A stretch of 64,000 nt of DNA from contig CAVYSY010000010.1 of NCBI GenBank assembly GCA_963771175.1, positions 129,393-193,392 of the forward strand, written 5' to 3'. The notes beneath the pieces were generated by a model. It was not told where the DNA came from, ran no database searches, and saw only the letters and a program-made list of their open reading frames with translations. Numbering within the stretch: position 1 is the stretch's first letter; each line of letters begins with the position of its first letter. Below, in pieces: positions 23,120 to 34,133 of this stretch. Source of the stretch: an uncultured delta proteobacterium. GTDB taxonomy: Bacteria; Myxococcota; Myxococcia; Myxococcales; Myxococcaceae. A program made the translations under genes and the position numbers.

Positions 23120-26100
23120 ATGGCGCGTACCGTGCCGACCCCGCTGCTCACCGCCGCACACCACCTTGGCTCCCGCTGGCTGTCCGGCGCCCTTGTCCTA
23201 CTGTTGTGTGCGCTCGGCTGCCAGGAGGCGCCAAACGATGGCACTTCCGCGCTGCTGCGCCTCAACCCCACCTCACTGCGAGCAACCTCGGGGCAGGACG
23301 CGGCCGCGCTCTTCGATCGCGATACCACCACGGGCCTGTCGCTCTCGCGTCCGGTGACGCTCACGCTCACCTTCGAGCATGACGTGCAGCCACAGCGCCT
23401 CAAGGTATTCGCCCGTGGTGGCGTGAAGGCGGAACTGAGTGGTGCACCGGCCTACGAGGCCCTGGGCAACGAAGCCTGGGAGAGCCTCACGTCCACAGGT
23501 GCCTGGCCCCGCCAGCGCATCCTCACCCTCACCCTGCGACCGAGTGGTGACGAGGCGAAGGTGGAGGAGGTGGAGTTGTGGGGTACGGGCATGCCGCCGC
23601 CGCGGGACGTGCAGGTACTCGCCGAGCGCTCACGCACTTCGGGCAACCTCCCCTTCTCCAACGTCCACGCATTCAGCGCCCAACCCATGAAGGCCACGCT
23701 CACCCCGCGCGGACTGGCCCAGGGCGACGATTGCGCCACCTTCCGCCTGGTCACCCCGCTGCCTGTTCGCACCGTACGCCGCGCTCACCTCGTGTACGAA
23801 GCCACTGGGGTGCAACGTCCCGTGGTACTGCGTCGCAGCCTCAACGCGCATCCAGCACAGGGCGGCCTGTGGCTCGGCGCCGGCACCCGCGAGCGTACCC
23901 TCGCCGATGAGCTCAACCCGGAGCAACTCACCGGAGCTGATCGCGTCACACTGTGCCTGCCGGAGGAGGCCACCCAGGCAGTGACCCTCGAGGGGGTGCG
24001 GCTGCTGCTCGAGCTGGACGACGGAAGCCAACCTTTCGATCAGGAGGCCACCCTGCGACTGCGTGCGGCGCTCGATGGAGACCCACGCACCTCGGCCGCC
24101 TTCTCCAACGGCGCCCTGGAGCTCCCCTTCTCCCGGCCAATGTCGGTGGACTCCGCAGTCCTCGAGCTGGACGCCCCCGCCGGCGAGGTCTCCCCCTCCG
24201 TGCTCGCGACCGAGGGCTGGAGAGAGCTCGGCCCGATGGCGCTGCCACGCGGCCGCACCCCCCTCGGGGTGGATGGCCAGGTGACGCGTGGCGTACGCCT
24301 GTCCTTCCCCCAGAGCCGCCGGCCCGACGTGCCCTCCGTAAGCGTGGCCGAGGTGCTGGTGACAGGCAGTGGCGTCGGCCCGCGCATCGCCGAGCCACGA
24401 CTGGTCATCACCTCCCCGCCCCTGGAGCCCACGAGCGAGGAATTCTCGGGTGAGCACTTTGGAGATCGGGCCTACCTGGCTGGCTGGGCGGAATCCCCCG
24501 CAGGCCGCGGCGTGGTGGAAGTGGACGGAGTTCCGGTGGACAGCGGAGAGGGTCACTTCGGAGTGATCCTCTCGCGTCCCACCGACCGCCCGAGGTGGTC
24601 GGTCGTAGTGCGCGCCCGCTTCCCGGATGGGAGCGAGCTGCGACGAGTGATTACCTTCGATCGCGATCGCGCTTCGGAGATCGATGCCGATCTGCTGCAG
24701 GGCCCCGAGGGGCTTGGGAGCGAGACGGCCCTCTTCGGTGAGGAGGAACAGACAGCCTGGGGTCGGGTGGATCGGGACAAGGGCGGGAAAGTCGAGCTGG
24801 GCAGTCGCGTGGCTTTCGAAGCCCCGCCGGGCGCGGTCGACGGCCCGCTCTCCGTCGGCATCACCCGGAAGACGCCGGAGGCCCTGCCCCGGCTCGATCC
24901 CGGTATGGTGAACGTCACCGCCCCGGTGAACGCAGGCTACCGCTTCTCGCCTCCTGGCCAGCGGTTCAACAAGCCCGTCACGGTGACGCTGCCTTACGAT
25001 CCCACCCTGCTGCCGGAAGGCATCCCACCCGAGCAGATCCAGACCTTCTACTTCGATCGCGGCCACGACCAGTGGAAGCCGCTCGCACGCAAGCAGGTGC
25101 TGCGGGCCACCCAGCAGGTGGTGAGCGAGACCACGCACTTCACGTTCATGATCAACGCCGTGTTGGTCCTGCCGGATCACCCGGGCCCGGTCTCGTTCGA
25201 TCCCACCTCGCTCAAGGACCTCAAAGCGGCCGAGCCCGCCGCGGGCATGGCCCTCATCGATCCGCCCGAGGGCAACCACCAGGGCACGGCGCGTGTGGGT
25301 CTGGAACTGCAGCTGCCAGGCGCGCGCGGAGCGTACTCGCCAGAACTGAGGCTGATGTACGACTCGAGTGGCGGCAACGGTTGGTTGGGTGTGGGCTGGG
25401 ACCTCCCCATTTCCAGCGTCCAGGTGGACACGCGATTCGGCGCCCCGTTCCATGATGGCTCGGAGCGCTTCGTGCTGGACGGTGAGCAGCTCGTCCCAAT
25501 TGGCGATGGGCCGTGCGTGGATGGAACCACGGGCAAGCAGTACGCGGCGCGAGTAGAAACCGCGTTCCGGCGCGTGGTGCACTGCGGCCAGGGGAGCCGC
25601 ACCGATCGCTTCGAGGTCGCACAACAGAACGGCGTCCTGCTGCTCTACGGCGTGACGCCGGAAGCACGCGTAGCGGATGCGAAGCGACTGGTGGATCCGA
25701 CGGCCCCCCTTCGCATCGGGCAGTGGATGCTCGAGCGGGTGGTGGACCCGAACGGTAACCTCACGCTCTATCGCTACAGCGCCGATTTCCGGAAGGCTCT
25801 GGGCACCCGCTTCGATCAGAACAATCACGAGCCGTTCCACCAGCTCTACCCGCGCGAGGTGCTCTACACGGGCAAGGTGGCCCGCACGGACGCGGTCAAG
25901 GAGGAAGAAGCGTTCCGCCTGGCCGCCGAGTTCGGCCCCTACCTCGTTGCCTTCAAGCTGGAAGAGGATGGCAGCGGCGAGCTCCTCGAGCGACCGGACA
26001 TCCTCGTCAACGGGCGCATGGGCTTCAAGGTCGCCACCCGTTACCGGCTCGGCCGCGTGCAGGTGCGGATGAACACGTCGGAGGACACCTCCATCATCCG

Positions 26101-32100: not shown

Positions 32101-34133
32101 ACGGGGTGAAGACGACCTACACCTATGAGCCCGACACCCGGAGACTGTCCTCGCTCACCACCCGGACACCTCGCGGGCGCACCCTGCAGGCGCTCTCCTA
32201 CCAGTACGATCGCATGGGGAACCTGCTCGGGATGACCAACGCGCTCGGCCTGCCGGTGGGACGCCGTTCGGGCTCGGTCTCCTATTCGTTCAGCTACGAC
32301 GCGCTCTACCGGCTCACGTCTGCCCAGGGCGTGGCACTGGCGCGACCGGGGCTCATCGACCGGTTCGAATCCACCTTCGCCTACTCGGATATCCACAACC
32401 TCGAGCGCAAGGTGCAGGTGCACGAGCTGCTCACCAGCCGCTCACCCCAGGGTGGCCCGGCACGTCCGGACCATAGCAACCACGATGACGCATACGTCTA
32501 CGGCGGGAGCGGGCCGCACCAGGCCACGCGCATCGGCGACATGCTCCTCACCTACGACCTCAACGGCAACACACTCGTCGAGTGCCGCACGGTCAACGGG
32601 TCGGGCTGCGCGGACACCGGAGATTCGACGCCCTCGCCCCAGACACACAACCACTACCGGCGCTACGTGTGGACGGAGGACAACACGCTACGGGCTGTGG
32701 TGGACGGAGGGGGCGCCAATGCCACGCGCTTCTTCTATGACGCGGACGGCGAGCGCGTGGTGAAGCTGGGCCGGGGCGGAACCAGCCTCAGCATCGACCA
32801 GTTCTTCTCTGTGAAGGGCAAGCGCCACGGCACCAAACACATCTTCGCCGGGCCCACGCGTTTGGCCTCCAAGCTGCTGCCGGTACCGGATGGTGACATC
32901 GGCTTCGCCGAGCGCCCAGGCGACACCTCCGGGACGGTGCTCACGAGCGGCACCCTCGCCACCGACAATGACAATGGCTGCGAGCCGAGCAACTATCAGC
33001 CACAGAAGTGCCCGGTGGTGGTGGATCCGCCCCCGGGAGGCACGGGAGATGAGCCCTCGGTACGGCCGGCCACATATTACTACCACCCGGATCACGTGGG
33101 CTCGACGAGCTGGGTGACGGACCAGCAGGGCCGCGTCCACGAGCATGTGGAGTACTTCCCGTACGGCGAGGTGTGGCGAGACCAGCGCCACGACGACGAT
33201 GGGGCGCCGGTACGCGCCCCCAACTACCTCTTCTCCGGCAAGGAGTTCGACGAGGAGACGGGGCTCGGCTACTTCGGAGCGCGCTATTACGATCCACGCA
33301 AGGCGCGGTGGGTGTCGGCTGATCCATTCCGCGAGCAGTGGGGCAAGGAACCAGTTCCGCCGCTCCTGTCGGCATATGGCTACTCGTACCACTCGCCACT
33401 CGTCCTGAAGGATCCGGACGGCAGATTGCCCAACGTGGTGGTTGGCGCGGCGGCGGGCGCTGTGATCGGCGGTGCCGTCTACTCCGTGACCAAGGCCTTC
33501 ACGGGAGGCTTCACGTGGAGGGGCTTCGGAGCGGCGGTTGCTGGTGGCACGGTGAGCGGAGCCATCGCGGGTGCCACATTCGGAACAAGCCTCGTCGCAC
33601 AGGCTGCCGTGGGAAGCGCCGCCGGTATGGCCGGAGGCATAACCAGTCGGGCCATCGAGACGGGCAGCGCCAAGGAAGCGTTCAATCCCCGCGCGGTAGT
33701 CACCGATGGAGCCCTGGGAGGTGCATTTGGCGCTGCAGGTGGAGCCATCCGGAACGCGGTGGCCGCACGGACAGCCGCAAGCACAACTCTCGCGAATACA
33801 GCCGCAAGGACCACAGCACGTGCAGGGAGCGAGGTCACAGATGATGCAATCCGCGCCGCAATGGCGGATGCGCCATTGAAGACACATCAACAGGCCGTAT
33901 CCGTTCCGGCGATTCGTCGCTACGTTGATAGGCTCGTTGCTGGAGAGAGCCCTCCACCAATAAAGGTCGACAACGGCATCATCGTCGATGGCAATCACAG
34001 ATACATCGCCGGACGCCTATTTGGCTCAGAAACACCCCAAACACCTGGAGTCCTGCCTAGCTTCAAAGCTTCACAACCACCACTCAGCTGGCGTGATATA
34101 TTTCTCGACCCTACGGACTGGGGAAACAAATGA
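23120..34133 (+). CDS. Giant Rhs/YD-repeat polymorphic toxin: SpvB(TcB-N)-FG-GAP-TcdB-mid-Rhs core-ParB/Srx-like tip; split by about 4 indels (near 29732, 29765, 29830, 31346)
   Basis: GGAGG RBS; lipobox ALGC; SpvB-like GARGAYSPELRLMYDSSGGNGWLGVGWDL; several D(L/I/M)NGDG repeats; YDRDEREFFGFATV; YD repeats; Rhs core YYYHPDHVGS...YFPYGE...FSGKEFDEETGLGYFGARYYDP...PLVLKDPDG. The split ORFs read through in adjacent frames. Confidence 0.88.

Follow-up and report, generated by a model that had tools for sequence, protein, structure and literature searches.

A myxobacterial polymorphic toxin of the ZU5-SpvB-propeller-RHS class with a lipoprotein-type signal peptide and a predicted autoproteolytic site

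The subject of this analysis is a stretch of 64,000 nucleotides (nt) from an uncultured delta proteobacterium of the family Myxococcaceae (assembly GCA_963771175.1, contig CAVYSY010000010.1, positions 129,393 to 193,392 of the forward strand); the whole stretch is called the window in the following. On its plus strand, at 23120-34133, lies the gene for an Rhs toxin cocoon, with a GGAGG 8 nt ahead of the ATG. Its reading path of about 3,670 amino acids (aa) extends over three open reading frames (ORFs), i.e., ORF1 (23120-29770, +, 2216 aa), ORF2 (29828-31408, +, 526 aa) and ORF3 (31368-34133, +, 921 aa). The protein is a member of the ZU5-SpvB-propeller-RHS class of polymorphic toxins which was defined in 2012.

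The three ORFs are pieces of a single gene. An intact homolog of 3637 aa, P0002, spans the whole interval at 81-87% identity in a tblastn comparison. Aligned to it, the path shows four frame changes in total and zero other stops. Three of these changes (frames 2 to 0 to 1 to 2, the stop at 29768-29770 included) are clustered at about 29735-29835 (+), and one (2 to 0) is located at about 31340-31370 (+). The Pfam domain TcdB_toxin_midN is divided at the first break: profile positions 8-58 end ORF1 and positions 70-170 start ORF2, therefore one gene is at hand. The first-pass annotation, made from the letters of the DNA and a list of ORFs, had described one path of this length with about four single-base indels, and the three ORFs, the four frame changes and the alignment to P0002 confirm it.

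We regard it as quite likely that the frame changes are indel errors of the assembly, because frameshifts affect at least three further genes of the window. The pyruvate kinase gene (2633-4071, +) is broken near 3180, with the PK profile positions 1-178 in a different frame from positions 177-328 plus PK_C. A UvrD-like helicase gene (54715-56600, minus strand) is broken near 55300 such that the N-terminal helicase domain and UvrD_C reside in two overlapping ORFs, and the lipoprotein gene directly upstream of the toxin is frameshifted near 22600. Further, all breaks in the toxin gene adjoin short G/C runs. The alternative is a real pseudogene, i.e., the organism itself has the four frame changes and produces no toxin, an outcome which the first-pass annotation had itself named as fatal to its proposal. 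With four breaks over 11 kb, and a cluster of three within some 100 bases, the gene is more densely broken than the rest of the window. This speaks for a pseudogene, as does the fact that the 2216-aa piece stands in the protein collection as a predicted protein. Decay would sit badly with the lack of any further stop, with a G+C content at third codon positions (GC3) which is steady at 0.84-0.85 along the toxin scaffold, with an intact relative, P0002, at 84% identity, and with the broken genes elsewhere in the window, pyruvate kinase among them. We thus consider a pseudogene unlikely, although it deserves to be kept in mind. Programmed frameshifting at the first cluster was rejected as the RNA around it folds no better than shuffled sequences (z = -0.40) and intact homologs are uninterrupted at this point. 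The lesson for annotation is that three ORFs represent one gene and that the assembly in all likelihood carries indel errors in several genes. Separately, an ORF at 51564-51872 (+) covers no more than the final 50 positions of the TerC profile and is possibly another frameshifted gene.

The central and C-terminal parts of the protein are built like the B and C components of Tc toxins. The SpvB/TcB N-terminal domain (25277-26041, +, residues 720-974; Pfam E = 7.2e-26) aligns to positions 34-469 of TcdB2. It is followed by an FG-GAP beta-propeller (26372-29734, +; Pfam FG-GAP_3 3.4e-11) with six blades of the type D-x-N/D-G-D-G-L-x-D. These blades are interrupted by an insertion of about 600-800 residues (about 26747-28639, +) which is conserved in the family, is without a Pfam match and is missing from TcdB2. 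In the family profile positions 711-1093 correspond to TcdB2 34-469 and positions 1905-2067, weakly, to TcdB2 500-651; therefore the propeller region of the family contains about 800 extra positions. A BLAST self-comparison indicated no significant internal repeats in the insertion or in the N-terminal module described below. At 29828-33410 (+) follow the remainder of the TcdB mid region and the RHS/YD shell as far as the Rhs core, the second break included (Pfam TcdB_toxin_midN 6.6e-15; RHS_repeat 3.6e-22 in ORF3). The core ends in DPDG at 33411, and up to 33824 (+) extends a hydrophobic linker of about 135 aa which is rich in glycine zippers (Pfam Glycine zipper 2TM E = 0.0049, sub-threshold) and is a possible membrane-entry segment. 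An aspartyl protease site in the shell core is predicted from the DPDG motif. Searching the PDB with the family profile gave TcdB2-TccC3 as the best match (E = 7.2e-99), followed by YenB/YenC2, SpvB, Rhs shells of type VI secretion systems (T6SS) as well as teneurins. Thus, the SpvB, FG-GAP, TcdB_toxin_midN and RHS domains which had been suggested from the letters are recovered in the Pfam scan, and DPDG, in keeping with the suspected PxxxxDPxG site, is present after the Rhs core.

Residues 1-720 match 96 proteins in a homolog search, the query included, i.e., there are about 95 relatives. By a manual count of the table, 66 of the 96 are 3,453-3,812 aa long. The relatives which share the N-terminal module are mostly Myxococcota proteins encoded by single ORFs (3,450-3,810 aa). 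Named members are known from Archangium, Anaeromyxobacter, Cystobacter fuscus, Haliangium ochraceum and metagenome-assembled genomes of Myxococcales, a few distant ones from Marinobacter and Nonomuraea. A contig scan with FG-GAP motifs extended the circle to distant relatives at 21-34% identity; among the matches listed, Bacteroidota, Spirochaetota, Actinomycetota and Sorangium have this architecture too. Within the family one scaffold is combined with many different C-terminal toxin domains (Pfam AHH, LHH, GH-E, Tox-SHH, Ntox50, Tox-REase, PT-HINT). Judged from these comparisons, a constant scaffold with varied C-terminal toxins is the signature of a polymorphic toxin system. All features of the Rhs type of such systems are present at the locus: the conserved scaffold, the variable C-terminal toxin and an adjacent candidate immunity gene.

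Ahead of the SpvB domain a ZU5 domain is located (24752-25147, +, residues about 545-676). The evidence is a sub-threshold Pfam match, an AlphaFold2 model and a Foldseek search. Pfam ZU5 scores 15.5 bits on the window sequence against a cut-off of 21; it is above cut-off in the homolog P0086 (25.1 bits) and a match is also obtained in 5 of 13 diverse members, whose loci represent five phyla (best E = 3e-6). The AlphaFold2 model of residues 538-703 has a pLDDT (predicted local distance difference test) of 90.3 and a predicted template modelling score (pTM) of 0.81. Using this model Foldseek returned 18 PDB matches at E≤0.001, headed by the ZU5 domain of ankyrin (E = 1.3e-6, TM score 0.63-0.68). 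The ZU5 domains of ZO-1 and UNC5b came next and then the autoproteolytic GAIN domains of CD97 and BAI3; NLRP1 was found at E = 0.03. At the level of sequence the region had 0 phmmer matches in the PDB, and a profile search retrieved only the ZU5 domain of ZO-1 at E = 2.3. The ZU5-like region proposed in the first-pass annotation is therefore well founded in the fold model and its structural matches. What had been overlooked is the meaning of a tripeptide at its end.

This tripeptide, the HFT motif at 25136-25144 (+, H673-F674-T675), is near-invariant: it is kept in 94 of 95 aligned relatives and in all 35 rows of alignment A1. The model places it in the turn which joins the last two strands (129-136 and 139-145). 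Self-cleavage at HF↓S in the equivalent hairpin position is a property of PIDD, Nup98 and UNC5CL, and in FIIND and GAIN domains the strand past the cut stays bound. A near-invariant HFT at the C-terminal hairpin of a ZU5 domain thus leads to the prediction of self-cleavage. By analogy, the cut would sever the cocoon covalently from a lipid-anchored stub of about 640 residues, with the cocoon remaining docked. P0096, a protein of 3000 aa from Myxococcaceae which is annotated as TcdB mid/N-terminal, starts at a Met two residues past the predicted HF↓T cut; its start is either mis-called or a natural split at the ZU5 site.

The N-terminus starts with a signal peptide (23120-23221, +, residues 1-33) consisting of an Arg-containing n-region, a hydrophobic core of 14 residues and a lipobox-like A-L-G-C34; the mature protein would start with C-Q-E-A-P-N-D. 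Homologs were examined with a strict (PROSITE-like) and a relaxed lipobox pattern. Of the 86 homologs which possess the first domain, the strict pattern is passed by 58 and the relaxed one by 67, and eight of the misses are truncated start calls which still display x-x-[GAS]-C. A Cys within 15 alignment columns of C34 is retained in 76 of the 86, and in alignment A1 the conservation of C34 is 90% or higher; the Cys is thus conserved in homologs, a point on which the first-pass annotation had made its proposal depend. Beyond the myxobacteria lipoboxes recur in two members from Spirochaetota and one from Chitinophagaceae. For Myxococcus xanthus, the available portion of Bhat et al. (2011, PMC3222651) gives Lys at +2 as a mark of inner-membrane lipoproteins and Ala at +7 as a mark of matrix lipoproteins. 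The toxin has Gln at +2, not Lys, and Asp at +7, not Ala, hence by these rules the outer membrane is the predicted location. From the sequences, the lipoprotein reading appears well supported for the myxobacterial subfamily and is a prediction for the window protein itself. Of the type II signal peptide claimed at first pass, a Sec-type signal ending in Cys34 and a relaxed lipobox stand, a strict lipobox does not.

Between the signal peptide and ZU5 an N-terminal module extends over 23222-24751 (+, residues 35-544). It is conserved in the family, including D66, W120, E150 and W154, and probably consists of discoidin-like and Ig-like adhesion domains. The two F5/8-like segments which had been suggested here were upheld in part: the window's own sequence has no Pfam F5/8 match at E≤10, and F5_F8_type_C emerges in the aligned homologs P0084 (35.4 bits, residues 335-432) and P0079 (21.5 bits, sub-threshold, residues 71-161).

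At the other end, the C-terminal toxin domain (33825-34130, +) comprises 102 aa and is ParB/sulfiredoxin-like with the motif V-D-G-N-H-R-Y, in which G56 and H58 are among the invariant residues. In a representative library it has 436 relatives at E≤0.001, always in C-terminal position, in proteins of 91-2826 aa. Among 35 relatives scanned the domain is joined to RHS (17), CdiA-type DUF637 (3), PT-HINT (2) and SpvB plus TcdB (1), and in the Atlas it scores 0.96 to a ParB/Srx cluster. The Tox-ParB motif is given as DGHHR in the accessible text of PMC3482391. The start of the next gene overlaps the toxin stop (ATGA). This gene (34130-34627, +) encodes a pentapeptide-repeat protein of 165 aa (Pfam Pentapeptide 3.4e-33), the candidate immunity protein. 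A homolog search with it yielded generic pentapeptide-repeat proteins only. The same order of genes is found in an unrelated record from Pseudomonas aeruginosa (L074, NZ_CP137521): a homolog of the toxin domain, 48.5% identical, is followed by a pentapeptide-repeat gene which is 34% identical to that of the window. GC3 is 0.85 in the shell and declines to 0.66 in the linker and 0.51 in the toxin domain; in the immunity gene it is 0.57. This fits what an imported cassette would be expected to display. MfpA, Qnr and other pentapeptide-repeat proteins act as mimics of DNA. A DNA-mimicking pentapeptide protein would fit a DNA-directed toxin, and binding to the toxin is predicted. The word pentapeptide is absent from the 300,000 characters of the 2012 catalogue text that were available (PMC3482391); a ParB-like warhead matched with a pentapeptide-repeat protein may thus represent an immunity mechanism missing from this catalogue. 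As to L074 itself, the record is small and circular (2630 bases) with little beyond the two genes, and it looks like an orphan toxin-immunity cassette.

No family match to TcA, VgrG or PAAR was obtained by Pfam in any scanned ORF of the 64-kb window, in which the largest other ORF has 933 aa. The first-pass annotation had stated the same and had spoken of a toxin with no such partner. The absence from the window is confirmed; to deny a partner is too strong because a syntenic lipoprotein gene ends 13 bases before the toxin. This gene (21742-23107, +, stop at 23105-23107) encodes about 455 aa with FN3-like repeats and a signal peptide ending in LIAG-C (Cys codon 21835), and its product is a candidate accessory partner. 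Both halves of the frameshifted gene align colinearly to a lipoprotein of 506 aa which is encoded directly 5' of the toxin homolog in the Nitrospirota locus L023 (8120-9640). Altogether 13 homologs were found; the intact ones are single ORFs of 424-454 aa, and P0370 has a Pfam fn3 match. The homologs P0382 and P0374 are on contigs of sizes 12,200 and 37,743, the same sizes as those of the contigs of the toxin homologs P0002 and P0004; probably, relatives of lipoprotein and toxin share these two contigs. In an Atlas search with an upstream lipoprotein homolog recognition was below threshold.

The order of genes in other lineages is comparable. In at least 23 Bacteroidota-type loci the gene directly 5' of the toxin belongs to one family of 500-1100 aa according to a hidden Markov model search, for which 10 of the 23 were the training set. 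The loci in which this gene ends at the toxin start are L004, L006, L012, L016-L018, L020, L021, L027, L034, L035, L039, L041, L045, L047, L052, L053, L055, L056, L064, L066, L068 and L070. A C-terminal sorting domain of the type IX secretion system (T9SS) was detected in 9 of 18 large neighbours scanned, in 6 of them above the Pfam cut-off. In Spirochaetota conserved genes with lipoprotein signals precede the toxin (L003 6058-7554; L058 598-2091; L015 908-3366; L060 7415-9887). An ORF upstream of the locus L005 of So ce56 was considered as a partner and rejected as its translation looks spurious. The recurring theme, as read from these loci, is a surface-anchored protein encoded just ahead of the cocoon gene.

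Downstream of the immunity gene, at 35054-36586 (+), another lipoprotein is encoded (LLGTA-C) which has beta-propeller-like repeats and a weak DUF5122 match. It resembles the lipoprotein 5' of the toxin in L003 (BLASTP E = 2e-10, driven by the repeats); whether it belongs to the system is uncertain. Farther away, at 56404-59205 (+), the open frame of 933 aa contains, close to its C-terminus, a CHAP/NlpC-P60 peptidoglycan hydrolase domain; the coding frames of this region are ambiguous.

From these data we favor, with some reservation, the view that the product of the gene is a polymorphic antibacterial toxin exported by Sec and belonging to the ZU5-SpvB-propeller-RHS class, i.e., a TcB-TcC-type cocoon which operates without a TcA injector or a T6SS. 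The signal peptide would carry the protein across the inner membrane and Cys34 would be lipidated; Gln at +2 and Asp at +7 would, by the rules for M. xanthus, sort it to the outer membrane. The N-terminal module of about 510 aa may serve attachment or recognition. ZU5 would cut itself at H-F↓T (673-675), as its analogs PIDD, Nup98, FIIND and GAIN suggest. The strand past the cut would stay in the sheet and the cocoon would be held on the lipid-anchored stub non-covalently, hence in a releasable state. The shell of SpvB, propeller and RHS domains would enclose the C-terminal piece, which presumably is freed at the DPDG core as in the solved TcC and Rhs proteins. Upon contact with a neighbour the glycine-zipper linker may help the ParB-like domain of 102 aa to enter the target cell, where DNA or a nucleotide would be attacked. 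The producer would be protected by the downstream pentapeptide-repeat protein, likely a DNA mimic, whose pairing with this toxin domain is seen in two unrelated records, and the upstream lipoprotein is likely an accessory for display or export. The probable function of the gene is to kill bacteria in its neighbourhood, and the injector customary for such cocoons would not be needed. The lipid-tethered cocoon exported by Sec and Lol, as pictured at first pass, survives in part: a TcB-TcC-type cocoon in one protein and a Sec-type signal ending in Cys are present, and the predicted HFT cut would separate anchor from cocoon.

Several points weigh against this proposal. The protein's own lipobox, C-A-L-G-C, passes the relaxed pattern and fails the strict one because position -4 is a Cys. 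Six of the 67 homologs carry Lys at +2, for which inner-membrane retention is predicted by the M. xanthus rule. Distant non-myxobacterial members possess ordinary signal peptides, thus lipidation is not essential to the family. The passage of a lipoprotein of about 400 kDa across the outer membrane, or its flipping therein, is a difficulty. A literature search found no ZU5 self-cleavage demonstrated for any bacterial Rhs toxin. The assignment of the warhead is affected too: the best Pfam match to the ParB superfamily has E = 0.13-0.16, in 5 of 39 members. Finally, it is hypothetical that the Rhs4 and Rhs5 proteins of M. xanthus, to which we turn below, belong to the family.

Three other routes of delivery have to be considered. 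In myxobacteria a lipoprotein signal alone can suffice for transfer by outer-membrane exchange. A toxin lodged as a lipoprotein in the inner leaflet of the outer membrane could be passed to kin by TraA/TraB exchange, a route which the first-pass annotation had offered and for which the available part of PMC5562445 provides the precedent, exchange-delivered SitA lipoprotein toxins of myxobacteria. The lipoprotein-type signal without an inner-membrane retention residue agrees with it. However, large Rhs proteins of M. xanthus (about 4000 aa) which carry a signal sequence are reported to kill kin without need of T6SS or outer-membrane exchange, and killing persisted when both were inactivated (PMC10433427, PMC10047993). 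If these proteins belong to the present family, these reports weigh against exchange. Further, the architecture recurs among the matches listed from Bacteroidota, Spirochaetota, Actinomycetota and Sorangium, in some with ordinary signal peptides, and the predicted ZU5 cut would part the cocoon from its lipid. We therefore judge a SitA-like route to be improbable. Still less can be said for a T6SS effector. Many Gram-negative Rhs proteins do use this system and its Rhs proteins are among the PDB relatives, over the shell only. Yet a cleavable signal peptide directs the protein out of the cytoplasm, PAAR, VgrG and DUF4150 are lacking in protein and window, and large myxobacterial Rhs proteins are reported to act independently of T6SS (PMC10433427); delivery by a T6SS is hardly credible.

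A classical Tc toxin, whose cocoon would dock on a TcA pentamer with its gene in another part of the genome, would account for the strong similarity to TcdB2-TccC3, and the negative result for TcA covers the 64-kb window only. The propeller is the part which docks on TcA in Tc toxins. Here it is interrupted by an insertion of about 800 positions, and a Sec signal peptide and a ZU5 module are present. Warhead and immunity gene form a pair of the interbacterial type, and TcA domains were found by Pfam in 0 of 18 large neighbours of family members. A TcA-dependent toxin is thus very improbable, if marginally less so than a T6SS effector. The Sec-exported cocoon without an injector remains our preferred reading. 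An extension of it is a surface weapon of two genes. In this view a lineage-specific anchored upstream partner (in Myxococcota, Nitrospirota and Spirochaetota a lipoprotein, in Bacteroidota a protein sorted by T9SS) would export the cocoon or tether it in place of TcA, and the ZU5 cut would act as a contact-triggered latch freeing the loaded cocoon. This extension is speculative, and in its entirety it is unlikely to be correct.

The family provides a concrete and widespread case of a probably Sec-exported Tc-type cocoon without an injector, with about 95 close relatives and the same core in at least five phyla. For the question how a cocoon of this kind gets to a target cell and opens there, three features offer starting points for tests in culturable myxobacteria: the HFT site, the lipid anchor and the conserved surface protein encoded upstream. 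In the literature we found no description of a conserved lipobox on this class, of the propeller insertion, of the upstream partner pattern or of the pairing of ParB-like toxin and pentapeptide-repeat protein. These are refinements and do not constitute a new kind of system. The first-pass annotation knew of no characterisation of the delivery route for Rhs proteins, yet the route is not without precedent: the class was defined in 2012 (PMC3482391, in the portion accessible), and lipoprotein display has been predicted for another class with a YD shell (PMC13018210).

T6SS Rhs effectors are linked to PAAR/prePAAR or VgrG and have no signal peptide; the window protein lacks the former and possesses the latter. 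With SitA it shares a lipoprotein-type signal, a polymorphic C-terminal toxin and an adjacent immunity gene, yet SitA is small, without a cocoon and dependent on TraA/B, and the portion of the SitA literature at hand describes no Rhs, SpvB or ZU5 domain. Tox-ParB domains likewise are small C-terminal domains on RHS or filamentous-haemagglutinin scaffolds with a D-G-x-H-R motif. In the window this motif is DGNHR, not DGHHR, Pfam ParB models are not significant, and the immunity families which the consulted part of the catalogue lists for Tox-ParB are Imm20, Imm27 and SuFu, not pentapeptide-repeat proteins.

TcdB2-TccC3 from Photorhabdus and YenB-YenC2 from Yersinia have in common with the window protein the SpvB domain, the FG-GAP propeller, the mid region, the RHS shell and a core ending in DPxG. 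Differences are that B and C are fused and preceded by a long N-terminal extension, that a signal peptide, ZU5 and about 800 additional propeller positions are present, that the locus has no TcA gene nearby and that the warhead is of an antibacterial type. Tc B and C components are not known to have a Sec signal peptide; they assemble in the cytoplasm and are released by lysis (PMC10847048); the window protein departs from them in its Sec signal and in the lack of a TcA partner. A survey of Tc toxins makes no mention of Myxococcota or signal peptides (PMC7861908).

Rhs4 and Rhs5 of M. xanthus are also myxobacterial, measure about 4000 aa and carry a signal sequence, and it has been suggested that they are displayed on the surface (Vassallo et al. 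2020, as summarized in PMC10433427). Their genes are on Mx-alpha prophages whereas the window gene is located among housekeeping genes. Bacterial teneurin-like proteins form a class with a YD shell around a polymorphic toxin, and their Myxococcota members are predicted to be surface-displayed Sec/SPII (signal peptidase II) lipoproteins with immunity genes (PMC13018210, 2026). The YD shell is a shared feature and so, by prediction, is the lipoprotein-type signal. However, teneurin-like proteins have an FN-plug and an NHL propeller, the window protein has SpvB, an FG-GAP propeller and ZU5, and teneurin-like chains in the PDB match only the last shell segment (profile about 3066-3329).

The class to which the protein belongs is the one which Zhang, Iyer and Aravind (2012, PMC3482391) named the 'TcdB/TcaC' export class and characterized by a signal peptide, ZU5, SpvB, a beta-propeller and RHS. 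In the part of this paper available to us, ZU5 is already predicted to set the toxin free at the surface of the cell. Common to class and window protein are the signal peptide, the N-terminal ZU5, SpvB, the integrin-like propeller, RHS, a variable C-terminal toxin and a downstream immunity gene. To this layout, as given there, the window family adds a lipobox, a module of about 510 aa ahead of ZU5, the propeller insertion, an upstream gene for a surface-anchored protein and a pentapeptide-repeat protein as candidate for immunity.

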